Shown: piece by piece, positions 15,528-54,449 of the stretch
Layout: each line of letters starts with the position of its first letter
How positions within the stretch are numbered: the first letter of the stretch is position 1
Assembly (NCBI RefSeq): GCF_055900595.2
Contig: NZ_CM148325.1
DNA length: 64,000 nucleotides
Direction: 5' to 3' (one strand)
Notes under the pieces: model-generated
The model's input: only the letters and a program-made list of their open reading frames with translations
Database searches by the model: none
What the model was told of the DNA's origin: nothing
Made by a program: the position numbers and the translations under genes

Positions 15528-16852
<1,325 letters not shown>

Positions 16853-23276: not shown

Positions 23277-24044
23277 ATGGCAGATACCTCTTCAACCACC
23301 GCTGGCGCACAAACGTTATTACGCGGGCTGGCGGTTCTTAATGCTGTTTATAACGGCTGCCATGACCTGAAAAGTATCGGCGAGTTCACCGGCACGACCC
23401 GGAGCACAACCCATCGTTTAGTCACCGTTCTGGTGGAACAACGCTACCTGCGCCACGTCCCAACGCAGGGCTACCAACTGGGCGCCAAACTGATCGAATT
23501 CGGTGCCAGAGCACTGGAAAGCACCTCGCTGTACGAAGTTGCGCTGCCCGTTTTGCAGCGTCTGGCCCGTTACACCCTGGACACCGTGCATCTGGGGATC
23601 GTTGAAGGCGGCGAAGTGCTGTATCTGGAGAAGATCAACAGTCAGCGTGGGCTGGAAATGCGCTCACGCCCAGGCCATCGCATGCCACTGGCAATCACCG
23701 GCATCGGCAAGGCATTGATCCTCAACCGAACAGAAGAAGAGTGGCGCACGCTGTTTAAGACCTGTGGTGATGAAACAAAACTGGGCACATTTATTCAGAA
23801 CATGCGTCGTTATGCCGCCAGTGGTTTTGCTTTTGATCTGGAAGAGAACGAGCCGACTATCCGTTGCGTTGCAGCGCCGGTTTACAACGCCCGGGATGAA
23901 ATTGTGGCGGCTATTTCTGTCGCCAGTACCACTACGTATATGTCACTGGCGCGTCTGGAAGAACTGGCACCTTACGTCAAATCCTGTGCAGAAGAGATAT
24001 CCGCTGAACTGGGCTGGGGTAAGCACGTCCACAAAAATAAATAA
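23277..24044 (+). CDS. IclR-family transcriptional regulator
   Basis: 255 aa from MADTSSTTAGAQTLLRGLAVLNAV…; N-terminal wHTH and C-terminal effector domain pattern of IclR/KdgR-like regulators; RBS AGGAGA upstream of ATG 23277. Confidence 0.75.
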   Translation: MADTSSTTAGAQTLLRGLAVLNAVYNGCHDLKSIGEFTGTTRSTTHRLVTVLVEQRYLRHVPTQGYQLGAKLIEFGARALESTSLYEVALPVLQRLARYTLDTVHLGIVEGGEVLYLEKINSQRGLEMRSRPGHRMPLAITGIGKALILNRTEEEWRTLFKTCGDETKLGTFIQNMRRYAASGFAFDLEENEPTIRCVAAPVYNARDEIVAAISVASTTTYMSLARLEELAPYVKSCAEEISAELGWGKHVHKNK

Positions 24045-24067
24045 ACCATGACTAAAGGAAACGGCTA

Positions 24068-25072
24068 ATGTCGGGAAACACCTCATTTATTGCCCTGGAC
24101 TGGGGAACGTCATCGCTTCGGGCATGGCGTTTTGGCGACTCACCCAATCCACAAGAAAAACGTGAATTCCCGTGGGGGATCATGAAATTACCCTCCCAGG
24201 CAGCAACACGTGAGGACGCTTTCCACGATACGTTTTTACGTGTCTGCGGCGACTGGCTGGCACAATCCCAATGCCCGGTTCTGGCTTGCGGCATGATCGG
24301 CAGTGCGCAAGGGTGGCAACCCGCAGCTTATTTACCTTGCCCGGTCACTCTCGAGGGTCTGGCAAAGCAGTTGACGCCTGTTATCTACCAGCAGCAGACA
24401 ATGCTGCACATCATTCCCGGCGTGATTAAAGAAGGTGAAATGCCCGAAGTGATGCGTGGCGAAGAGACACAAATCTTCGGTGCTATCTCGATGGAACCGG
24501 CCCTGCAAAACGCGATCCGCCAGGGTATGCCTGTGCTGATTGGCTTACCTGGCACACATGCGAAATGGGCGGTAGTTGAAAACAACACCATTACCGATTT
24601 CCGAACCTTTATGACAGGCGAGTTATTTGATGTTTTATCCCGCCATTCGATTCTCGGTGCCACCATGCGTTCGGGAGATGAACCGCACTGGGATGCCTTC
24701 ACCCATGGGCTGAAATCAGCACAAGAGCATCATCAGACCGGATTATTATCGACGCTGTTTTCGACCCGTTCGCGCCTGCTGACCAGTAATCTTACGCCGT
24801 CCTCGCAGGGGGATTACCTTTCAGGATTACTGATAGGCCATGAATTATGCGGTCTGGCATCCAGTTTGCTACGTGATTTACCCGCCACAACACCGATCGC
24901 CTTAATCGGTAGCGCCACTCTGAACAGCCGCTATTCACAAGCATTCAGCCACGTTTTTCCCGACAGACAGCTACACGCCATTCCTAATGCCACTGAACAG
25001 GGGTTATGGCGAATCGCCCACGCTGCCGGGCTACTCTCCACCAACGCCAGGGAATGTACTCATGCCATTTAA
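24068..25072 (+). CDS. 2-dehydro-3-deoxygalactonokinase-like sugar-acid kinase (DgoK family)
   Basis: 334 aa; blocks shared with E. coli DgoK as recalled: IALDWGTSSLRAW, MRGEETQIFGA, PGTHAKWAVV, DFRTFMTGELFDVLSRHSILGA, SGLLIG. Confidence 0.7.
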   Translation: MSGNTSFIALDWGTSSLRAWRFGDSPNPQEKREFPWGIMKLPSQAATREDAFHDTFLRVCGDWLAQSQCPVLACGMIGSAQGWQPAAYLPCPVTLEGLAKQLTPVIYQQQTMLHIIPGVIKEGEMPEVMRGEETQIFGAISMEPALQNAIRQGMPVLIGLPGTHAKWAVVENNTITDFRTFMTGELFDVLSRHSILGATMRSGDEPHWDAFTHGLKSAQEHHQTGLLSTLFSTRSRLLTSNLTPSSQGDYLSGLLIGHELCGLASSLLRDLPATTPIALIGSATLNSRYSQAFSHVFPDRQLHAIPNATEQGLWRIAHAAGLLSTNARECTHAI

Positions 25073-25691
25073 TACGCTTTTGCAAAAAACCGGGTTAGTC
25101 GCCATTTTACGCGGCGTGAAACCGGATGAGATTGTCGCCATCGGTGAAAAGCTGTATGCCGCTGGATTTCGCCTGATTGAGATTCCCATGAACTCGCCGG
25201 AGCCGTTGCAAAGTATCAGTTTACTGCGCGACGCCCTGCCTAAGGACTGCCTGGTCGGAGCCGGAACTGTGCTTTCGGTGGAGCAAGTCGTCGCGGTTAA
25301 AGAGGCTGGAGGCCAGATTATCGTAATGCCGCATTGCGATACTGCGGTGATCCGTCGTGCCCGTGCGCTGGGTATGTATTGTGCGCCTGGCGTCGCTACG
25401 CCCACCGAAGCTTTTGCTGCCATTGAACATGGCGCCAATGCCATCAAGCTGTTCCCGGCTGAACAAATTACGCCTGAAGTCACCAAAGCCTGGCGTGCGG
25501 TTATTCCACAATCCGTTCCGATGTTACCGGTTGGCGGTATCACTCCAGACACAATGGCGCGTTATCTGAGCCACGGCGCAAACGGCTTTGGCCTCGGTTC
25601 TGCGCTATATCGCCCCGGCATGACGCCAGAGCAAGTCTATGAAAATGCAGTACTGTTTATGAACGCATGGAACAATTTAAATAGCAAATAA
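25062..25691 (+). CDS. KDPG/KDPGal-type class I aldolase (DgoA/Eda family)
   Basis: 209 aa from MPFNTLLQKTGLVAILRGVKPDE…; LIEIPMNSP, GAGTVLSVEQV and VGGITPD blocks parallel DgoA; overlaps the kinase stop by 11 bp. Confidence 0.7.
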   Translation: MPFNTLLQKTGLVAILRGVKPDEIVAIGEKLYAAGFRLIEIPMNSPEPLQSISLLRDALPKDCLVGAGTVLSVEQVVAVKEAGGQIIVMPHCDTAVIRRARALGMYCAPGVATPTEAFAAIEHGANAIKLFPAEQITPEVTKAWRAVIPQSVPMLPVGGITPDTMARYLSHGANGFGLGSALYRPGMTPEQVYENAVLFMNAWNNLNSK

Positions 25692-25715
25692 CTGATAAAT
25701 AAGGATATAAAAGCA

Positions 25716-26690
25716 ATGATAAAACATCTTACCTTACCGAAAAAAATGGCTGCAATGGTACTTCTTGCCGGCGCTGCCCTCAGCACTGCGCCTGTGCAGG
25801 CGGCCTCCTGGCCAACCAAACAGATCGAGTTAGTCGTACCCTACGCGGCCGGAGGCGGTACGGATCTGGTTGCCCGTGCCTTTGCTGATGCCGCCAAAAA
25901 CCATTTGCCCGTCAGCATCGGGGTTATCAATAAACCTGGCGGTGGCGGCGCTATCGGCCTGAGTGAAATCGCCGCTGCCCGCCCTAACGGTTACAAAATG
26001 GGTTTAGGCACGGTTGAACTGACCACCCTTCCCAGTCTCGGAATGGTGCGTTTTAAAACCAGCGACTTTAAACCCATTGCCCGTCTGAATGCGGATCCGG
26101 CTGCTATCACCGTCCGTGCCGATGCACCGTGGAATAGCTATGAAGAATTTATGACTTACGCCAAAGCGAATCCCGGAAAAGTACGCATTGGTAACTCAGG
26201 CACCGGAGCAATCTGGCATCTGGCGGCAGCTGCACTGGAAGACAAAACGGGCGTGAAGTTTTCTCATGTCCCATATGACGGCGCAGCCCCTGCCATTACA
26301 GGCCTGTTAGGCGGGCATATTGAAGCGGTTTCCGTAAGCCCAGGTGAAGTTATCAATCATGTGAAAGGCGGCAAGCTGAAGACACTGGTAGTGATGGCGG
26401 ATGAACATATGAAAACCATGCCTGACGTACCGACGTTAAAAGAGAAAGGCGTTGATCTCTCCATCGGCACCTGGCGCGGCCTGATTGTGTCGCAAAAAAC
26501 GCCGCAGGATGTGGTGGATGTTCTGGCAAAGGCAGCAAAAGAGACGGCTGAAGAGCCTGCATTCCAGGATGCGCTGCAAAAGTTGAATCTCAACTATGCA
26601 TGGCTTGATGGTGCCAGCTTCCAGACCCAAATCAACGAGCAGGAAAAGTACTTTGACGAGCTGCTGACTCGCCTGGGCCTGAAAAAATAA
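25716..26690 (+). CDS. tripartite tricarboxylate transporter (TTT) periplasmic substrate-binding protein, TctC/Bug family
   Basis: 324 aa; signal peptide MIKHLTLPKKMAAMVLLAGAALSTAPVQA; family assignment from overall sequence character and the adjacent TctB/TctA-like genes. Confidence 0.7.
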   Translation: MIKHLTLPKKMAAMVLLAGAALSTAPVQAASWPTKQIELVVPYAAGGGTDLVARAFADAAKNHLPVSIGVINKPGGGGAIGLSEIAAARPNGYKMGLGTVELTTLPSLGMVRFKTSDFKPIARLNADPAAITVRADAPWNSYEEFMTYAKANPGKVRIGNSGTGAIWHLAAAALEDKTGVKFSHVPYDGAAPAITGLLGGHIEAVSVSPGEVINHVKGGKLKTLVVMADEHMKTMPDVPTLKEKGVDLSIGTWRGLIVSQKTPQDVVDVLAKAAKETAEEPAFQDALQKLNLNYAWLDGASFQTQINEQEKYFDELLTRLGLKK

Positions 26691-26706
26691 TCCCGAGGTA
26701 CGGTCG

Positions 26707-27213
26707 ATGAACACAAAACAGTCTGTTGCTCAACTCGCCGTACCGCACCGCAAGCGCCTTTCATCCACTGTGGTGGTGGCGCTGTTACTTTGTGTGGTTG
26801 CTGGCGCGGTGATAATTAATGCCGCTGATTTTCCAGCAACTGCCATTGAAACGGATCCCGGTGCAAGTGCCTTCCCTACTTTCTATGCCTGCGCTCTGAT
26901 TGTGCTCGCTGTCTTACTTGTGATACGCGATCTTTTGCTGGCAAAACCAGTCCCTTGCGCCAACGCACAGGAAAAACCGGCATTCAGGAAAACGGCAACA
27001 GGAATTGCGGCAACCGCGTTTTATATCGTGGCAATGAGCTACTGCGGTTATCTCATTACTACTCCTGTTTTCCTCATCGTCATTATGGCATTGATGGGCT
27101 ACAGGCGATGGGTACTCACACCGGGTATTGCGCTGCTGTTAACGGCAATCCTCTGGTTGCTGTTTGTCGAAGCGTTACAGGTGCCATTGCCTGTCGGCAC
27201 ATTTTTCGAATAA
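26707..27213 (+). CDS. TTT small membrane subunit (TctB-like)
   Basis: 168-aa hydrophobic four-TM-type protein between the TctC-like and TctA-like genes. Confidence 0.6.
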   Translation: MNTKQSVAQLAVPHRKRLSSTVVVALLLCVVAGAVIINAADFPATAIETDPGASAFPTFYACALIVLAVLLVIRDLLLAKPVPCANAQEKPAFRKTATGIAATAFYIVAMSYCGYLITTPVFLIVIMALMGYRRWVLTPGIALLLTAILWLLFVEALQVPLPVGTFFE

Positions 27214-27225
27214 CAGGGGCCTGCA

Positions 27226-28716
27226 ATGTTTGAAAGTGAACTTTTAACTCAGGGGTTTTCGACATTACTCAGTAATCCTCAGGCGCTGCTGTTTGCCACG
27301 TTTGGAGTGATGCTGGGTATTATGATTGGCGCTCTGCCTGGCCTGACAGCGACCATGGGTGTGGCGATTTTGCTGCCTTTCACCTACGGCATGGAGCCTG
27401 TTTCTGGCTTGTTGATGATTTGCGGTGTCTTTTTTGGTGGTGTGTATGGTGGTTCTATCACCGCAATTTTGCTCAAAATTCCCGGTACGCCTGCCGCCGC
27501 TGCCACCGCCATTGACGGATATGAGCTGACGAAGCAGGGAAAAGCCGGGCTGGCGTTAAGTGCCGCCACGTTCTCTTCTTTTAGCGGTGGAACGCTCAGC
27601 ATTATCGTATTGATGTTTCTCTCTCCGGTACTTGCCAGTTGGGCGTTGAAATTTAGTGCCTCGGAGTCCTTCGCCCTGGCAACCTTCGGACTGAGCATTA
27701 TTGCCAGTATTTCCGGTGAGTCACTGATTAAAGGGCTGATTGCCGGGGTTGGCGGATTGCTTATCGCAACGATAGGCCTTGATCCAATGGGCGGTTTTCC
27801 ACGCTTTACAGGTGGATTTGTGGAGCTGATGAATGTGCCATTTATCCCGGTGATGATTGGTTTATTTGCTGCTTCAGAAGCATTCCGCTCTATGGAGCAA
27901 AACCAGCAAATTCGTCAGGGGGCGAAGGTGGCTATCGGCAGTCTGTTACTGCCCTGGCAAACACTACGCCGCATCGCATTAACCATTTTGCGCTCATCAG
28001 GATTAGGGGTTTTTATCGGCATGATCCCCGGTGCGGGGGCAGATATTGCAGCTTTTGTTGCCTATAACGAAACTCGTCGTTTCAGTAAGACGCCTGAAAA
28101 CTTTGGTAAGGGTGAGATTAAGGCGGTGGCCTCCTGTGAGGCAGGCGCGAATGGCTGCACCGGTGGCGCATTGTTACCTATGCTGACGTTGGGGATCCCA
28201 GGCGATGCGGTAACTGCCATCATGCTGGGCGCGTTAACGTTACAAGGGATGCAGCCAGGCCCACTTATGTTTACCGACCACGGCGATATGGTTTATACGC
28301 TGTTTGTCGGCATGATCTTTTGTTACTTCATGCTGCTAGTTCTTGGACTGCTCTCTTTGAAAGTCATCGGTAACGTGGTGAAGATCCCCGGCAATATTCT
28401 CACGCCGATGATCCTCGCACTTTGTGTGGTCGGGACTTATGCGCTGAACAATAGCCTGTTTGATGTTGGCATTATGCTGATTGCAGGCGTGGTGGGCTAT
28501 TTCATGCAAAAAGGGGGGTATCCGGCATCACCCGTAGTGCTGGCATTGATTATGGGGCCAATGGCGGAAAGTAATTTTCGCCGTGCGCTGTCGCTTTCTG
28601 GTGGGTCACTCGACTTTCTGTATACCCGACCGATAACCCTGGCATTGCTGACACTGGCAGCCTTTACGCTACTGACGCCAATAATACGCAAAATTATGCG
28701 CTTACGGCGTCAGTAA
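27226..28716 (+). CDS. TTT large permease subunit (TctA-like)
   Basis: 496-aa polytopic membrane protein; glycine-rich blocks typical of TctA. Confidence 0.7.
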   Translation: MFESELLTQGFSTLLSNPQALLFATFGVMLGIMIGALPGLTATMGVAILLPFTYGMEPVSGLLMICGVFFGGVYGGSITAILLKIPGTPAAAATAIDGYELTKQGKAGLALSAATFSSFSGGTLSIIVLMFLSPVLASWALKFSASESFALATFGLSIIASISGESLIKGLIAGVGGLLIATIGLDPMGGFPRFTGGFVELMNVPFIPVMIGLFAASEAFRSMEQNQQIRQGAKVAIGSLLLPWQTLRRIALTILRSSGLGVFIGMIPGAGADIAAFVAYNETRRFSKTPENFGKGEIKAVASCEAGANGCTGGALLPMLTLGIPGDAVTAIMLGALTLQGMQPGPLMFTDHGDMVYTLFVGMIFCYFMLLVLGLLSLKVIGNVVKIPGNILTPMILALCVVGTYALNNSLFDVGIMLIAGVVGYFMQKGGYPASPVVLALIMGPMAESNFRRALSLSGGSLDFLYTRPITLALLTLAAFTLLTPIIRKIMRLRRQ

Positions 28717-30807: not shown

Positions 30808-33069
30808 TTACCCCCGACGCAAATTCTGCGCCGCCTGCACCATGTTCGCCAGTGCCGCGCGGGTTTCTGGCCAGCCGCGCGTTTTCAGACCACAGTCCGG
30901 GTTGACCCACAGACGCTCTGCCGGAATGCGTTTTGCCGCTTTCTTCAGCAGGGACTCAATCCATTCCACGCTCGGTACGTTTGGCGAGTGAATGTCATAG
31001 ACGCCAGGACCGATTTCATTCGGATAATCAAACTCTTCAAACGACTCCAGCAACTCCATGTCGGAACGCGAGGTTTCGATTGTGATGACGTCAGCATCCA
31101 GCGCCGCAATCGAATCCATGATGTCGTTGAACTCGCAGTAACACATGTGAGTGTGGATTTGCGTGTCATCTTTCGCTACGGCAGCGTTGATACGGAAAGC
31201 CTCCACGCCCCACTGAAGATAGGCATCCCAGTCGCTGCGACGCAGCGGTAAACCTTCGCGTAGCGCCGGTTCATCAATCTGGATGATGCCAATTCCAGCC
31301 GCTTCCAGATCGGCCACTTCATCACGCAGCGCCAGCGCAATTTGTTTGGCGATGGTTTCACGGCTGACATCTTCACGCGGGAACGACCAGCAGAGAATGG
31401 TCACCGGACCAGTCAGCATCCCTTTCACCGGTTTGTCGGTCAGCGATTGCGCATACTTCGCCCACTCCACAGTAATCGGTGCCGGGCGGCTAACGTCACC
31501 AATGACAATCGGTGGCTTCACGCAGCGGGAACCGTAGCTCTGTACCCAACCGTTTTGCGTAAAGACAAAGCCATCCAGGTGCTCGCCAAAGTATTCCACC
31601 ATGTCATTACGCTCGGCCTCACCATGCACCAGCACATCCAGACCCAGACGTTCCTGCTCAACAATGGCCTGCTTGATATGTTCTGCAATGCCCGTACGAT
31701 AGTTGTTGGCGTCGAGATTACCCTTTTTGAAATCCAGACGCAGGGTACGGATTTCTGTGGTTTGCGGGAAAGAGCCAATCGTGGTGGTCGGCCAGGCTGG
31801 CAGTTTAAAACGCGCACGCTGGGCTTCAGCACGCACTTCATAAACGTTCGCACGCTGACTGTCCTGGGCGGTGATCGCCGACAGACGCTTTTCTACTGCC
31901 GGATTATGTACACGAGTAGAGTGACGACGCGCCTGAATCGGAGCGCTCCACCCTGCCAGAGCTGCCGTATCACCACTGTTCAGCGCATCGCGCAGCAATG
32001 CCAGTTCATGACATTTTTGCAGGGCGAAGGCAAACCAGCTTTTCACTTCTGCATCAAGACGCGTTTCCACGCTCAGGTCGATAGGGCTGTGCAGCAATGA
32101 GCAGGAAGATGCCACCCACAAATCACGTTTGCCGACAATGTCCTTAATTTGCGCATATTTCTCGGTAAGATCGGCGCGCCAGACGTTACGACCATTGATA
32201 AGACCAGCAGATAGCAGCCAGTCAGAAGGCAGACGCTTGTGCAGTTCAGCAACGTCATCTTTACCATGTACGAGATCGACATGCAGACCCTGAACAGGCA
32301 GCGCAGTAATGGTGTCGAGATTTGGCGTTACGCCTTCAAAATAGGTAGTCAGCAGCAGTTTCACCTGGCCCTGGAGCGCGTCGTAAGCGGGTTTATAGGC
32401 GTCCAGCCACGCCTGCGGCAGTTCCAGCACCAGCGCGGGTTCGTCGATCTGTACCCACTCAATGCCGCGTTTTGCCAGTTCTGCCAACACTTGCTGATAA
32501 ACCGGCAGAATGTCGTTTAGCAGGCTCAGGCGATCAAACTGTTCACCTTTCACTTTACCCAGCCACAGGTAGGTAACCGGTCCCAGCAGCACGGGCTTGA
32601 CCTTGTGGCCCAGCGCCAGCGCCTCGTCCACTTCCTCCAGCAGTTGCGTCCAGGTCAGTTTGAACTGTTGGCCTTTAACGAACTCCGGCACCATGTAGTG
32701 ATAGTTGGTGTTAAACCATTTGGTCATTTCCGCTGCCGCCGCAGGTTCGCCAGTCGGCGCACGTCCACGACCAATACGGAACAGGGTGTCGATATCTACC
32801 GAACCATCTTTGTTCTGGTGACGCGCCGGAACGTTACCCAGCAGCAGGCTGGTGGTCAGGACATGATCGTACCAGGCAAAATCACCCACCGGCAGCAGGT
32901 CGATACCTGCTTGCTTTTGTTGATCCCAGTGACGAGCACGCAGTTCACGCCCTACCGCCAGCAGTTCTTCACGCGTGGAGTTCCCCGCCCAATAACTCTC
33001 TTGCGCTTTTTTCAGCTCGCGACGCAGGCCAACGCGAGGGAAACCGAGGGTGTGATTAAGAATTGTCAT
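30808..33069 (-). CDS. metE: cobalamin-independent methionine synthase
   Basis: 753 aa starting [30 protein letters not shown]…. Confidence 0.95.
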
Positions 33070-33186
33070 TATATGCCCCTTATGGAATTTTTAGTATTTA
33101 GCCGTCCAGATGTTTACACATCCATAATTGGCGGTTACTGTATATTCCTCAAGCGCAAATTATTCATGCCGAAGTGAAGGACTTTC

Positions 33187-34140
33187 ATGATCGAAGTAAA
33201 ACACCTGAAAACGCTACAAGCGTTGCGGAACTGCGGCTCACTCGCAGCCGCTGCGGCGACGTTGCATCAAACGCAATCCGCCCTGTCTCACCAGTTTAGC
33301 GATCTGGAACAACGCCTTGGCTTCCGGCTATTTGTGCGTAAAAGCCAGCCGCTTCGGTTTACACCGCAGGGAGAAATCCTGTTGCAACTGGCGAATCAGG
33401 TGCTGCCGCAAATCAGCCAGGCACTGCAAGCCTGCAATGAACCGCAGCAGACGCGCCTGCGCATTGCCATTGAGTGCCATAGCTGTATTCAGTGGCTGAC
33501 GCCCGCGTTAGAAAATTTCCATAAGAACTGGCCGCAGGTGGAGATGGATTTTAAATCGGGCGTGACGTTTGACCCGCAGCCCGCGTTGCAGCAGGGTGAG
33601 CTGGATCTGGTGATGACCTCCGATATTCTGCCGCGCAGTGGCCTGCATTATTCGCCGATGTTCGATTATGAAGTGCGTCTGGTGTTGGCACCTGACCATC
33701 CACTGGCGACAAAAACGCGAATCACGCCGGAAGATCTCGCCAGCGAGACGCTGTTAATTTATCCGGTGCAGCGTAGCCGACTGGATGTCTGGCGGCATTT
33801 TCTTCAGCCCGCAGGCGTTAGCCCGTCACTGAAAAGCGTCGATAACACCTTGTTGTTGATTCAGATGGTTGCCGCACGGATGGGCATCGCTGCTCTACCG
33901 CACTGGGTGGTGGAGAGTTTTGAACGCCAGGGTCTGGTGGTCACCAAAACCCTGGGCGAAGGCTTGTGGAGCCGACTGTACGCCGCCGTTCGCGATGGTG
34001 AGCAGCGTCAGCCGATTACGGAAGCGTTTATTCGTTCAGCGCGCAATCACGCCTGCGATCATCTGCCGTTTGTGAAGAGCGCGGAGCGACCCACTTACGA
34101 TGCACCCACAGTGAGGCCAGGATCACCAGCGCGCCTGTAA
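33187..34140 (+). CDS. metR: LysR-family regulator of metE/metH
   Basis: 317 aa starting [37 protein letters not shown]…; divergent from metE. Confidence 0.92.
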
Positions 34141-34927
34141 TAAACGTTGGCCAGTGCGGCTGTTGGTGCCAGATAGCCAGGTTAACCAACAGCCCTGCCG
34201 GAACGTGCATATTATTCATAATGCCCAGCGTTCCGGCGTCCACCTGAGTCGCGCCGTAGTTCCACATAAAGTAGCCAATACCGGAAGCCACCACGCCAAG
34301 AAACACCAGAATGCCCCATTGCAGCGTGGTTTGCGGCATTTTCTGCGCATTTCCCAGCAAGAACCATGCAATCACCGCCACCAGGAACGCGCCAAGATAG
34401 AACCACGCAAAGGCGTTATGCTGCGGCATCGGGCGAGTTTCCATCAGGCGTTTGTAGCCCACCATGCCGATGGCAAAAGTGATATTGGAGAGTTGCACCA
34501 GCAACAGGCCGGTCCAGAAATGGTCAGTGACCTGATCATAGCGAATAATCCCGGCACCAATCACCGCCAACAAGGCGCTAAAAGCATAGCCCCAGCGCAG
34601 ACGGCGCTTACTCATGATGTCATAAATCAGCGTGATGTAGAGCGGCGTCAGTACGGTGAACAGCAACAGTTCGGAGACCGTCAGGTAGAGATAGGCGCGA
34701 AAACTCAGCATATACATCACGCCAAGCTGCATCGCGCCCACCAGCATATACAGACCGACCGTTTTCAGGCTATTGCCACGGGTACGCAGAAACGGCAGAA
34801 ACACGAGTGCCGCCAGGCCAACGCGCACCAGCACTGCAAAATAGCTATCGACGTGCCCCGCAAGGTACTCGCCATAAAAGCTAAAGGAGAAGGCCCACAG
34901 AATCGTGGTGATGATAAGTAGCGCCAC
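34028..34927 (-). CDS. yigM: DMT/EamA-family transporter (biotin uptake, BioP)
   Basis: Ten-TM EamA-type protein; start placed at GTG 34927 ([15 protein letters not shown]…) giving 299 aa; the ORF is open to 35002; 3' end overlaps metR convergently. Confidence 0.75.
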
Positions 34928-35002
34928 AATGGAAAACTCTTTGATTAACGAGTATCCATTGTAGCGAAGTATCAGGTTGACAACTGACCAAATAAAGAAC
35001 AA

Positions 35003-35803
35003 TTACGATAAATAGAGTTTACGCAGATAATGCGGCACCGCGTCGTCGGCATTAGTACCAATCACTTCCAGCTCCGGATGCAGATCTTTCAGACGCTGGT
35101 GCGCACTGCCCATAATGCAGCCTTTACCTGCCATCGACAGCATTTCGGCGTCGTTCATCCCGTCACCAAAGGCAATACAATCTTTCAGACTGTAGCCCAG
35201 TTTCTTCGCTACCGCTTCCAGGGCATGGCCTTTTGAAACGCCACCCGCCATCACTTCCAGACAAGTTAGGGTAGAGAAGCTGACGTTGACGCGATCGCCC
35301 CAACGAGCGTTGATTGCCTGCTCCAGCGGCAGCAGTTGCTCATGGGAATCGCAGGTGAAGAACACTTTGCTGACGCCTTCCGGCTCCAGTAATCCTGGCT
35401 CATACAGCGCATATTTGAACACCGCTTCTTTAAAAAAGCGCATCTCTTCCGGGCGGTGGCGATTCATAAACCATTCGTCGTCGCGATAAACGTTAGTAAT
35501 GATGTCCGGGTTGTCGTTGACCACGCCAAACAGATCGCTGGCAATGTCGCGATCCAGGTTATGAGCAAAAATCAGATTGCCATCCAGATCGTGAACACGC
35601 GCGCCATTGGAGGTAATCATGTAAGACTTAATCTCCAGATTATCGCGAATTTGCCCTACATCAACGTGGTGGCGACCGGTCGCAAACACAAAGTTAATGC
35701 CGCGCGCGGTGAGCAGCTTCAGAGTTTCTTTGGCGTAAGGGGATAACGTATGGTCGGGAGAAAGTAACGTGCCATCTAAATCAGACGCAACAACCTGGTA
35801 CAT
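35003..35803 (-). CDS. yigL: HAD-superfamily sugar/pyridoxal phosphate phosphatase (Cof-type)
   Basis: 266 aa from MYQVVASDLDGTLLSPDHTLSPYAKETLKLL…; HAD motif DLDGTLL. Confidence 0.88.
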   Translation of the reverse strand: MYQVVASDLDGTLLSPDHTLSPYAKETLKLLTARGINFVFATGRHHVDVGQIRDNLEIKSYMITSNGARVHDLDGNLIFAHNLDRDIASDLFGVVNDNPDIITNVYRDDEWFMNRHRPEEMRFFKEAVFKYALYEPGLLEPEGVSKVFFTCDSHEQLLPLEQAINARWGDRVNVSFSTLTCLEVMAGGVSKGHALEAVAKKLGYSLKDCIAFGDGMNDAEMLSMAGKGCIMGSAHQRLKDLHPELEVIGTNADDAVPHYLRKLYLS

Positions 35804-51602: not shown

Positions 51603-52493
51603 TCAGGCTGCCAGATCATCGTTTCCGATGGAAGCATAATAAGCTTTTTCTGCTTCTGCCGGAGGAGTATGGCCCAGCCTTCCCAGCAATCGTCGATTGT
51701 TATACCAGTCCACCCACGTTAGTGTGGCCAGTTCCACTTCTGCACGGTTTTTCCAGCTCTTACGGTGTATTACCTCCGCTTTGTAAAGACCATTGATGCT
51801 CTCAGCCATCGCGTTGTCATACGAGTCGCCTGTACTCCCTGTTGATGCCAGTAATCCGGCTTCTTTTAGTCGCTCCGTATAGGCCAGTGACACATACTGA
51901 GAGCCTTTATCGCTGTGATGGATGGTGCCAGACGGACGACGGGCCCACAACGCCTGCTCCAGCGCATCCAGCACGAATGTCGTTTCCATAGACGATGAGA
52001 CCCGCCACCCCACGATGTATCCGGCAAACACATCAATGATAAACGCCACATAGACGAAGCCCTGCCATGTGCTGACGTAAGTAAAATCAGCCACCCACAG
52101 CTGGTCAGGTCGTTCTGCCACGAACTGACGGTTTACGCGGTCGCCTGCGGCAACGGCTTTCCGGCTGATGGTCGTACGGACCTTTTTACCCCGGAGAACA
52201 CCGGCAAGTCCCATAACCGCCATGAGACGTGCCACTGTACATCTGGCCACCCTGATTCCTTCCCGTAACAACTGACGCCAGACTTTACGCACACCGTACA
52301 CCTGATGATTTTCATCGTATACGCGCTGTATCTCTCTCTTCAGCCAGTCGTCGTGCTGCGCACGGGCACTGCGTTTATCCGGATGATGTCGCTGTTGCTG
52401 ACAATGGTAATACGTTGACGGGGCAATATGCAGTTCGCTGCATACCGGTCCGACCCCGTACTGCTCACGCAGCTTATCCAGCAGTGGCATCAT
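51603..52493 (-). CDS. IS3-family transposase OrfB (DDE integrase core)
   Basis: 296 aa; rve-type catalytic region (…[24 protein letters not shown]…[10 protein letters not shown]…); 4-bp overlap with orfA consistent with programmed -1 frameshifting. Confidence 0.88.
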
Positions 52494-52816
52494 TTTTTCC
52501 AGAGGCGGTCGAACTCCGCCTTCGCAAAATAAGCGGAAGCCTGGCGAAGGATATCGTTACTGCGGCGCAGTTCACGATTTTCACGTTCCAGCTCTTTCAG
52601 ACGCTGACGTTCAGCGCTGGTGAGCCCACCATCACCGCCCCCGGTATCCCGCTCATGCTGGCGAACCCAGACACGCAGAGTCTCCGGCGTACAGCCAATC
52701 TTTGGAGCAATGGAACAAATTGCCGCCCACTGTGAGTCATATTCATCCTGACTTTCCAGAACCATACGAATCGCCCGCTGACGGACTTCGGGGGAAAAAC
52801 GAGTATTTTTAGTCAT
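52490..52816 (-). CDS. IS3-family transposase OrfA (HTH)
   Basis: 108 aa [61 protein letters not shown]…; matches the IS629 OrfA sequence as I recall it. Confidence 0.88.
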
Positions 52817-52970
52817 CCTGTTTACCTCTTTCTCAGGGAGTTTAGTCTCCAGGATTTCCGGGGCGGTTCAGTCTGAAAAATGAGGAATTGCTGCGAGTAT
52901 AACGCTTACACGTGGGGATTTATGTTTTGCTGGTAGTTTCGTGATCGGCACCTCGCGCCAGGATGGCTTT

Positions 52971-54449
52971 ATGCACTATCGCAATGTGGTTTGTTTGTTG
53001 TCTTGTTCGTTATTCTTATCCCCGGCATGGGGATGTCGGCTTTCCGCGCCTGAACATAATATTTACCAGAAACAGGGAAAAGGCGTGGTGTACCTGCGCC
53101 CTTATAAAGAAACAAATCTTTCTCTACCTGACGTGAATTACAAGAGTTTGCGTCGTTTACCTAATTTATTAATAGACGCAACAACACAAGATGAATGGAA
53201 TAAAGAACCACCTCTGACTGATCTAACAACTGACAACCTCTATGAGGGCGCACAAGCCTGGTATCCCCATTACTCCTGGCATAGCGATGGTCGCTATATC
53301 CTCTACGCGGGTGAAGTAGTGCAAAATCCTCACGACGCACCACCCGTCGATATCGCCTCATTCAAGGCATGGGGAGATTTTGCCGCGGATAAACACAGTC
53401 TCTATTTTGAAGGCAAGCGCACCGATAACAATGGCGGGGGAAATAGCTTAGATATCAAAACACTGCATCAGGTGGAATTCCGGCCTCCCTGGGATCCTGA
53501 CTTACTGGGGCTGATATTACGTGACGCTAATTTCTTGTATATCAATGGGCATCGCCTCGCAGATCCCGATAGTTTCCGTGTGCTGGCACAAAAGTCATGG
53601 GATCAGCGAGGAAAGTTTTCTACCGCGTTTAATCCCTGTGTGGCTATGCCATTTGGCCCCTGGGATACCCTGGCTCGTACACGGACCAAAATCCTGATCA
53701 ACGGCGAACAGCTTGATGCCGACCCGGACACCTTTTCCGTCGTGCGCTGGATGCCCGGCTCACTCTTGACCTGGCGTGATAAAAACGGGCTACAGCGTAA
53801 AGTCCTCGACAAGGAAAATCTGGCGTGGGATGAAGATTTAACAAAGCACTGTCTGGATTTTTCTCTGCTGGAAAAGAAAGTGTTCTGGCGTAAAGGGCCT
53901 GCTTGTAAACAGGAAGAATTACCGGGGCTCGATCCTGAACAGTTCCACCCCATCAGTGATGCTGTCGCCCAGTATCAGGATTCGCTTTATACCATCATCG
54001 AAACAGAGTCTGGTGACCGCAAGCTGGAGATCGTAAAACTTGATGATCCCAATCTTATTATCAACAAACGTTTCAACGCCGGGAAACGCCATGGCTATTT
54101 ACTTACGCGTGCCGAAGGGTGGCCAAACCATTCCGGTTTACACGTGTTTGAATCTGACGGACCGCTGATCTTACTGGATAACCACTCTCCGGATGAACGC
54201 GAAGCCCATCTTGATGACCATCCCTTTTTGCGCAGATGGTATGCCCGCGATAACCGCTACGTTTACAGCTTTGATGGCGCGCAGCTCTGGCGATACCGCA
54301 CTGCGGATCCGAAACAAGTTCGCTTAATCTGGAAGGAACAACATTCGGGATATGGCTACGGGGTAAATTACAAAACGGGATATCTGGACGGAAAAATTAC
54401 CGATGACGGCGAATTTATTCCTGCCCCGCGCAATGAGGCGACAAAATGA
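52971..54449 (+). CDS. secreted repeat protein, DKNYY-like, paralog 1
   Basis: About 492 aa from ATG 52971 (MHYRNVVCLLSCSLFLSPAWGC…); an in-frame GTG at 52941 is an alternative start; repeated D-x-x-x-LY-x-x-G blocks (DKHSLYFEGKRT, DANFLYINGHRLADPDSF, GEQLDADPDTFSVV, DNRYVYSFDG). Confidence 0.7.
   Translation: MHYRNVVCLLSCSLFLSPAWGCRLSAPEHNIYQKQGKGVVYLRPYKETNLSLPDVNYKSLRRLPNLLIDATTQDEWNKEPPLTDLTTDNLYEGAQAWYPHYSWHSDGRYILYAGEVVQNPHDAPPVDIASFKAWGDFAADKHSLYFEGKRTDNNGGGNSLDIKTLHQVEFRPPWDPDLLGLILRDANFLYINGHRLADPDSFRVLAQKSWDQRGKFSTAFNPCVAMPFGPWDTLARTRTKILINGEQLDADPDTFSVVRWMPGSLLTWRDKNGLQRKVLDKENLAWDEDLTKHCLDFSLLEKKVFWRKGPACKQEELPGLDPEQFHPISDAVAQYQDSLYTIIETESGDRKLEIVKLDDPNLIINKRFNAGKRHGYLLTRAEGWPNHSGLHVFESDGPLILLDNHSPDEREAHLDDHPFLRRWYARDNRYVYSFDGAQLWRYRTADPKQVRLIWKEQHSGYGYGVNYKTGYLDGKITDDGEFIPAPRNEATK

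Follow-up and report, generated by a model that had tools for sequence, protein, structure and literature searches.

The window analyzed here, 64,000 nucleotides of contig NZ_CM148325.1 (RefSeq assembly GCF_055900595.2), contains two genes that point at one another and run past one another's ends. On the plus strand is metR (33187..34140), encoding a LysR-type regulator of 317 amino acids and closing with a TAA stop at 34138-34140, as agreed by the list of open reading frames (ORFs), RefSeq, Pfam, and PDB. On the minus strand is bioP, also called yigM (34028..34927), encoding a biotin transporter of 299 amino acids with the ten helices of the EamA/DMT type and closing with TAA at 34030..34028 (ORF list, RefSeq, Pfam, AlphaFold2). 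Direct reading and a per-site table show the two to overlap tail to tail, on both strands, over 113 bp (34028..34140), with nucleotides shared by both frames up to their stops. A preliminary description of this DNA had claimed just such an overlap, and the ORF list, the direct reading, and RefSeq bear it out. First codon positions of the two genes face each other, second positions of metR face third positions of bioP, and third positions of metR face second positions of bioP. Directly behind the stop of metR is a further in-frame TAA (34141-34143). There is some latitude in the start of bioP: the minus-strand frame extends as far back as a TTG at 35002. The annotation begins the gene with the GTG at 34927, and that GTG is unchanged in all 76 species sequences compared. 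This question is irrelevant to the overlap, since an overlap of tails does not depend on the choice of start.

Strain Z0117EC0005, 100% identical to the window over the region, has the same geometry in RefSeq. The same locus in E. coli K-12 MG1655 (b3827/b3828; bioP 4011076..4011975, metR complement 4011863..4012816) likewise has an overlap of 113 bp. The allele in the window differs from that of K-12 in being of a divergent E. coli type, with 96-97% identity to most strains over 2 kb, and the tail of BioP differs at one residue, N298 in place of S298. All told, 5422 of 5426 complete E. coli genomes carry the segment.

An overlap of this size stands out from its surroundings. The surrounding 50 kb contains eight convergent pairs; gaps of 39-210 nt part the genes in six of them, and another, tatD/rfaH, overlaps by 4 nt, making metR/bioP a local outlier in length. 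The preliminary description had called the overlap unusually long for a convergent pair, and by the standard of its neighbors, with their gaps or 4 nt, so it is.

The two proteins and the DNA they share

MetR matches PF00126 (HTH_1) over residues 5-63 (E 4e-18) and PF03466 (LysR_substrate) over residues 86-288 (E 2e-47), and both matches clear Pfam's curated cut-offs. Over residues 1-92 the protein has the same sequence as PDB 5FO5 (E. coli MetR), and PDB 4AB5, the effector domain of a Neisseria MetR, aligns to residues 87-296. With these LysR-type domains and 99.4% identity to MetR of K-12, the protein is evidently its ortholog, and the gene is divergent from metE, as it is in K-12. K-12 MetR activates metE and metH in response to homocysteine, and by orthology the protein in the window would do the same. 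The limits of the MetR fold used below are those of the Pfam and 4AB5 alignments; AlphaFold2, given 15 close relatives, produced a model with a mean pLDDT of only 42.

The structural prediction is far more confident for BioP. PF00892 (EamA) matches in two stretches, the second at residues 139-275, and an AlphaFold2 model built with 76 diverse homologs (pLDDT 90.9) has ten long helices, as befits a transporter of the EamA/DMT type. Transmembrane helix 10 spans residues 259-284 in the model. Confidence drops after residue 280: residues 281-290 score 62, and residues 291-299 score 52. Biotin uptake by K-12 yigM has been demonstrated (PMC5120140, PMC4049904), and the BioP of the window, 99.7% identical to that of K-12, presumably has the same activity.

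These limits determine what the overlap encodes. By the Pfam and PDB alignments, the DNA encoding the fold of MetR runs to about 34074 (residue 296). That encoding the BioP fold, coming from the opposite side, ends at about 34088 (residue 280). Since the two stretches do not overlap, only C-terminal tails are shared: the tail of MetR, judged by the alignments, probably lies beyond its fold, and the tail of BioP is predicted by the model to lie beyond its own. Each tail nonetheless covers something of importance to its partner. The BioP tail covers residues 281-302 of MetR, the final conserved portion of that protein, and the MetR tail covers the second half of BioP helix 10.

Conservation in enteric bacteria

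One explanation for a long overlap is that it does not exist: were one of the stops mis-called, through a frameshift or a sequencing error or because an ORF was over-extended, the true genes would stay clear of each other. This is no idle worry. The long overlaps annotated in prokaryotes are for the most part mistaken (Palleja et al., PMC2478687), and in a single genome antisense frames as open as these match the expectation from chance, about 60% by a calculation given below. The matter can be judged from other genomes.

Genomes were scanned, one per species, the best 80 matches were listed, and a script located both genes and their stops at each locus. These 80 come from four families, Enterobacteriaceae, Yersiniaceae, Hafniaceae, and Pectobacteriaceae, and include no loci of Erwiniaceae or Morganellaceae and no MetR loci from outside the enteric bacteria. 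An overlap of 50-116 bp is kept in 78 of these best 80 species-level loci: 113 bp in 58 of them, 116 bp in 7, 98 bp in 3, 95 bp in 9, and 50 bp in one. The exceptions are a frameshifted symbiont and a Serratia locus in which the genes stand apart. Throughout the 76 full-length unique sequences there is no indel in either gene, and the distance from the start of metR to the start of bioP is always 1741 nt.

The lengths of the proteins tell the same story. MetR has 317 amino acids in database homologs from Salmonella, Klebsiella, Lelliottia, Buttiauxella, Cronobacter, and Yersinia, and 311-312 in those from Rahnella, Dickeya, Brenneria, and Pectobacterium, the C-terminal end falling by genus at residue 311, 312, 317, or 318. 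BioP homologs have 299 amino acids throughout Enterobacteriaceae. The BioP of Pectobacterium fontis has 284, having lost residues 285-299. Both C-termini in the window match the lengths of their orthologs (317 and 299 amino acids across genera) and do not look like artefacts of 3' extension. The suspicion, raised in the preliminary description, that a stop or start had been mis-called finds no support in these lengths, in the absence of indels from 76 sequences, or in the 5422 of 5426 E. coli genomes. Nor do the truly shorter C-termini that exist among the orthologs abolish the overlap: lineages with MetR of 311-312 amino acids or, in P. fontis, BioP of 284 still share 50-98 bp.

Then there is the genetic evidence. 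Cote et al. 2016 (mBio, PMC5120140) noted that yigM "overlaps substantially" with metR. They found that the Keio deletion of metR phenocopies loss of yigM, being synthetic lethal with bioA and sensitive in LB to an inhibitor of BioA, and they attributed the phenotype to disruption of yigM. The phenotype could partly reflect polarity of the cassette or antisense effects instead of truncation of BioP. As it stands, it supports the importance of the 3' end of bioP that lies inside metR, and it fits the presence of helix 10 there; indirectly, it also supports translation of BioP as far as its annotated stop. A literature search for the reciprocal effect, a yigM deletion that impairs MetR and so imposes a methionine requirement, turned up nothing usable; a bioH yigM::Km strain was grown on mineral medium with high biotin, and metR and methionine go unmentioned in that account (PMC4049904).

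It is too much to ask of a mis-called stop that it recur with the same geometry in 5422 E. coli genomes and in 78 of the best 80 species loci, in four families and without an indel in 76 sequences, that it enclose the conserved and confidently modeled second half of BioP helix 10 along with conserved MetR 281-302, and that deletion of metR then disrupt BioP function (PMC5120140). An artefact is scarcely credible here. I consider it highly probable that the overlap is genuine, old, and conserved, that both genes are real, and that both annotated stops are right, a judgment that applies jointly to the whole explanation developed below.

How far the arrangement extends can be seen from more distant relatives of BioP. 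Those at 33-57% identity, found amongst 1.84 billion cluster representatives, are 280-300 amino acids long, and their matches end at residues 270-286. The relative at 57% is from a Dickeya-like locus, with the overlap with metR kept at 98 bp and metE adjoining. Five relatives at 42-51% identity (282-296 amino acids, matching to about residue 275-286) are encoded away from metR and overlap no convergent gene. Since the distant relatives lie away from metR, the arrangement belongs to the enteric families sampled. Within those families, the Serratia locus with separated genes contains an inserted hairpin with a run of T, and both genes have apparently been retained. Duplication of the shared segment was considered as the means by which this overlap was resolved, and the similarity proved weak (score 13 over 28 nt, gapped).

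Variation, stops, and codon choice within the overlap

In the 76 sequences, the periodicity of variation switches from that of metR to that of bioP at about 34080-34092. On the near side lies a zone (34028..34086) that evolves as metR coding sequence. It encodes MetR 281-300, comprising the last helix and the conserved HLPFV, and BioP 281-299 and the bioP stop are read from it as well. Entropies at metR positions 1, 2, and 3 are 0.23, 0.17, and 0.83, the pattern of metR, and the changes hit second positions of BioP codons. On the far side is a zone (34093..34140) that evolves as bioP coding sequence (BioP 263-279, the second half of helix 10), from which MetR 303-317 and the metR stop are also read. 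Here the entropies are 0.42, 1.21, and 0.29, the pattern of bioP, with 1.21 falling at bioP third positions, and the changes hit second positions of MetR codons. The proteins follow suit: MetR 280-302 and BioP 262-283 are nearly fixed, and MetR 303-317 and BioP 284-298 vary widely. Tail residues that seem invariant owe this to the partner: BioP W274-V275, for instance, dictates MetR P307.

The two zones meet in a hand-over at 34087..34092, where MetR R301 (CGA) and P302 (CCC) stand opposite BioP V280 (GTC) and W279 (TGG). All six bases are invariant or nearly so, and this appears to be a point of true double constraint. The preliminary description had supposed that the overlap constrains both sequences. 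That holds for a few sites (34029, 34032, 34087-34092, and 34121-34126); it fails for most positions, where the flip in periodicity shows just one gene to be constrained. Put in terms of purifying selection on both frames, one frame is constrained at most sites and signs of double constraint are found at few, by statistics that ignore shared ancestry.

Where each frame ends follows from a direct reading of the genetic code. MetR F281-I282 (TTT ATT, 34027..34033) lies opposite the codon for BioP E299 and the TAA stop. Whichever codons make up TTY-ATH, the opposite strand has TAA or TGA, and the stop of bioP is therefore fixed by MetR. On the plus strand, the TAA of metR together with the second TAA (34138..34143) is fixed by BioP F262-I263-T264 (xTY then A). 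The metR stop is set by I263 followed by T or I at 264, and by F262-I263 in lineages with L or V at that position; L or V puts the stop one codon later, which gives the overlap of 116 bp. Each stop is fixed, then, by a conserved hydrophobic dipeptide of the partner.

I propose that each ribosome, once past its own fold, would continue through DNA antisense to the final structured element of the partner, as far as a stop made by that partner, MetR F281-I282 creating that of bioP and BioP I263-T264 (or F262-I263) creating that of metR. The amino acids of the tails would change freely because each wobble position faces the second codon base of the other frame, and the partner drifts synonymously. 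The tails would tolerate these changes because they are short extensions outside the fold, charged and cytoplasmic in BioP and proline-rich in MetR.

How much of this requires selection on the tails? When codons were redrawn from local usage with the partner protein held fixed, the BioP frame reached 34028 in 62% of draws, and in the same test the MetR frame was open to 34138 in 60%. With some 60% of redraws leaving the frames open, open frames in a single genome need no special explanation. It might be, then, that the tails are purely neutral products of read-through, the lengths of the ORFs following entirely from the conserved protein sequence of the partner. Neutrality would account for stops fixed by the partner's invariant dipeptides, for the outcome of the redraws, and for tails that vary at their own second codon positions. 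It would account as well for the natural truncations of BioP (284 amino acids in P. fontis) and MetR (311-312 amino acids in Rahnella, Hafnia, Pectobacterium, and Dickeya) and for bioP wobble positions that are no less variable inside the overlap than outside it in the 76 sequences. The persistence of the overlap is beyond chance: 78 of the best 80 loci keep it, and synonymous codons that would make stops are avoided.

The avoidance is best seen codon by codon. At BioP V268-I269 (34121..34126, minus strand), ATT or ATC at I269 before a codon beginning with A, or GTT or GTC at V268, would put a stop in the tail of MetR. I269 is encoded by the rare ATA in 38 of 76 sequences, a codon that appears in at most 4 of 76 at each of 15 other conserved Ile sites and has a usage of 3.7% in the dataset. 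Where the next codon begins with A, such that ATT or ATC would end MetR at residue 311, ATA is found in 24 of 36 cases, and these 24 span Kosakonia, Trabulsiella, Atlantibacter, Buttiauxella, Cedecea, Yersinia, Rouxiella, and Chimaeribacter. At V268, GTG is used in 66 of 68 Val codons; GTT and GTC, with a usage of 31%, would end MetR at 312. GTG is present here even where MetR has already terminated upstream, so it may be held for another reason. The reciprocal site is MetR V296-K297 (34072..34077, plus strand), where GTT or GTC before a codon beginning with A would put a stop in the tail of BioP. When codon 297 does begin with A, V296 is GTT or GTC in one case of 25, against about 31% expected, and the sole case is P. 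fontis, whose BioP has 284 amino acids.

Frozen wobble positions point in the same direction. The wobble is invariant in 4 of 214 conserved metR codons, all of them within the overlap (F281 TTT, I282 ATT, R301 CGA, and P302 CCC), and in 2 of 144 conserved codons of bioP: V280 GTC, facing MetR R301, and the start codon GTG. Five of the six invariant wobbles among the 358 conserved codons of both genes are thus inside the overlap. Positions 34029 and 34032 are T in all 76 sequences; elsewhere in metR, 18 further conserved codons for Phe and Ile all vary at the wobble. What the frozen wobbles of F281 and I282 preserve is the C-terminal E299 of BioP and its TAA stop. TTC at F281 would give TGA, still a stop, so the frozen TTT is not needed merely to keep one. 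More generally, the wobble positions of metR vary less within the overlap than beyond it (entropy 0.74 vs 1.05, p=0.018). The binomial p-values for codon choice ignore shared ancestry; comparison with Ile, Phe, and Val codons elsewhere in these 76 sequences is the fairer control, and it softens this bias and does not remove it.

Against neutrality, then, stand the rare ATA at I269, the near absence of GTT and GTC at V296 before A, the frozen wobbles at F281 and I282, and the lowered entropy of metR wobbles. Codons that avoid stops and wobbles that do not change argue that the tails are kept translated and are not pure by-products, and I regard strict neutrality as unlikely. As I see it, the tails have for the most part a passenger's sequence, and their translation to roughly the present length is probably under weak selection in most lineages. 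They can also be lost, as MetR of 311-312 amino acids in several genera and BioP of 284 in P. fontis demonstrate.

Transcription, origin, and significance of the overlap

A scan for intrinsic terminators found none at or between the ends of metR and bioP, and in their absence both polymerases must run into the partner gene. The RNA shows no special structure: there is no Rfam family in 32900-35300 at E<=1, and folds around the overlap are no more stable than shuffles on either strand (z -1.0 and -0.7). A palindrome within metR (33927-33955), a candidate for a 3' hairpin of bioP, has pairs kept mostly by conserved residues and preferred codons. There is a Rho termination region on the bioP strand, with its best position at K-12 4011704 (Rho score 5.1, p 1.3e-12; Adams et al. 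2021, PMC7815308 supplementary file 2), equivalent to about 34299 in the window. Such regions were called with windows of 800 nt and do not fix a 3' end. The supplements of the same work contain no curated Term-seq 3' ends for metR or yigM, and a literature search for 3'-end data specific to the metR/yigM locus found none. A Rho-dependent end of bioP transcription around the 3' end of the gene has, then, coarse support. I would suppose that each transcript, lacking an intrinsic terminator, ends within the partner gene, that of bioP by means of Rho.

From here it is a short step to the idea that the overlap is kept because it couples expression, through convergent transcription, mRNAs that overlap at their 3' ends, and interference or antisense control of the kind ascribed to excludons. 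The lack of an intrinsic terminator between or within the gene ends would serve such coupling, as would the Rho-sensitive region near the 3' end of bioP and the conservation of the arrangement across four families. Biotin synthesis consumes S-adenosylmethionine, and a link between methionine and biotin is conceivable. There are precedents as well. Antisense crosstalk has been described for convergent arfA-mscL (PMC10070815) and in the concept of the excludon (PMC7154746), and both resemble metR/bioP in having convergent genes whose transcripts necessarily overlap at the 3' end. The resemblance stops there: regulation by overlapping RNA has been demonstrated in those systems, whereas for metR/bioP it would be conjecture, and the overlap of metR/bioP goes beyond untranslated regions to coding sequence.

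The other evidence does not favor coupling. There is no conserved RNA structure and no Rfam family, conserved adjacency is already explained by the overlap locking itself in, one Serratia lineage has separated the genes with an inserted hairpin and T-run and apparently lost neither, and distant homologs of bioP function away from metR. That the overlap is maintained as a coupling device strikes me as improbable. A more specific version may be conjectured, in which the overlap is put to use: convergent transcription, ended by Rho or by collision of polymerases, would make the expression of metR and bioP mutually antagonistic, and translation of the tails would shield the overlapping RNA from Rho until each stop. 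This is a longer shot still, offered as conjecture. If there were such antagonism, the status of methionine and S-adenosylmethionine would be linked to the uptake of biotin.

Returning to the explanation I prefer, a genuine overlap with tails read from the partner's antisense, the arrangement may have arisen by loss of the 3' spacer in an ancestor of these families, and it would now be hard to undo, since both genes would suffer from any indel or rearrangement. An origin by 3' extension into a neighbor was put forward for other pairs by Palleja et al. 2008 (PMC2478687), and it fits metR/bioP. They considered overlaps of more than 60 bp plausible only in convergent pairs, 54 of the 178 examined in 338 genomes, and most of the 54 candidates are conserved only in very close species. 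The overlap of metR and bioP, tail to tail and longer than 60 bp, is like the long convergent overlaps in that work and in Rogozin et al. 2002, as cited therein; it is unlike most of the 54 in its conservation across four families. The name metR has no occurrence in the main text of Palleja et al. 2008. A nearer likeness in conservation is the holD-rimI pair of the same authors, a real overlap kept in Escherichia, Salmonella, and Yersinia, with its exact length specific to the genus. Those genes, unlike metR and bioP, are co-directional, and their overlap is shorter (32-56 bp). Being co-directional they might be coupled in translation, which is impossible for a convergent pair.

The metR/bioP overlap is real but ordinary, having been annotated and published already. 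What is added here to the accounts cited above is its conservation across families, the flip in periodicity, and the signals in codon choice, which are tidy and not surprising. They leave knowledge of either gene unchanged and open no long-standing question. The overlap does matter to those who use deletion mutants, since a deletion of one gene also truncates its partner, an effect that has already given rise to a misleading interaction between metR and bioA (PMC5120140). And the locus illustrates, with the clarity of a textbook case, how long antisense overlaps may persist: the tails lie outside the folds, the wobble of one gene faces the second base of the other, and each stop is fixed by conserved residues of the partner.

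Setting of the overlap

Most complete E. coli genomes match the 2 kb of window 33100-35100, which includes metR and bioP (yigM), with an identity of only 96-97%. At least 99% identity is reached by just 11 of 5425, and the sole 100% match seen is to an isolate from a dog in South Korea. With so few close matches among the 5425 genomes, the sequence indicates either that the source lineage is divergent or that a divergent allele is present here.

Other parts of the window can be described briefly. Between udp and rmuC (~23277-28716) lies a block with genes of a TctABC-type tripartite tricarboxylate transporter, which also encodes an aldolase, an IclR-family regulator and a 2-dehydro-3-deoxygalactonokinase; K-12 is not known to carry this block. 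At ~51628-54448, two adjoining genes on the same strand, which the annotation assigns to the DKNYY family, overlap by 95 nt (record coordinates 69317-70645 and 70551-72137). Co-directional genes with so long an overlap are likelier to reflect a wrongly called start, or one gene split in two, than a real overlap. The only convergent overlap besides metR/bioP in the 50 kb examined is that of tatD and rfaH, which the RefSeq annotation gives as 4 nt (~16058-16061).

The transcript end of bioP

One of the Rho termination regions published for K-12 peaks at position 4011704 on the plus strand, its best position, with a Rho score of 5.1 (PMC7815308, supplementary file 2). This corresponds to window ~34299 on the minus strand, within bioP and 271 nt ahead of its stop. 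Such regions were called in 800-nt windows (PMC7815308), so the region is compatible with two sites: termination could occur inside bioP or just beyond its stop, in antisense metR.

There is also a near-perfect palindrome, CCAGGGTCTGGTGGTCACCAAAACCCTGG, inside metR at 33927-33955, which is 73-100 nt beyond the bioP stop on the minus strand. It forms a hairpin when folded, and no U-run accompanies the hairpin. The pairing is preserved in most species, chiefly through conserved residues and preferred codons. The palindrome is a candidate for the 3' hairpin of bioP, and it may or may not play that part.

Frozen wobble bases within the overlap

Window positions 34029 and 34032, the wobbles of F281 (TTT) and I282 (ATT) of MetR, are T in all of the 76 species sequences aligned, in which the 18 other metR codons listed for conserved Phe and Ile residues are all variable. 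At I282, ATT retains E299 of BioP. At F281, TTC would also give bioP a stop, now as TGA, and the invariance of 34029 is therefore not accounted for by retention of the stop.

Loci with altered gene ends

Among the matches listed from 80 species loci, the overlap is undone solely in Serratia sp. PL17 (L081, 3890-4070), where the region is longer by 107 bp. MetR keeps a 316-aa form with a tail still recognisable, and BioP keeps helix 10 but ends in a short new tail, …WVAPKIISK. The 33 nt now between the gene ends contain a hairpin, AGGGCTTCC…GGAGCCCT, and then a T-rich run. The shared segment may have been duplicated in part, although the evidence for this is weak.

The locus of Enterobacterales bacterium AwEntero has frameshifts in both gene ends: BioP is broken after FIVGRR by two successive stops, and the metR frame extends to 373 codons. 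This looks like genome decay in a symbiont or like a fault of the assembly.

In Pectobacterium fontis (L078, ~3887), BioP is shortened to 284 aa by a stop that arises from V296 (GTC) and K297 of MetR, and the former BioP tail, with its own stop, remains readable downstream of the new one. This locus is a natural test of BioP residues 285-299 and shows that their loss can occur.
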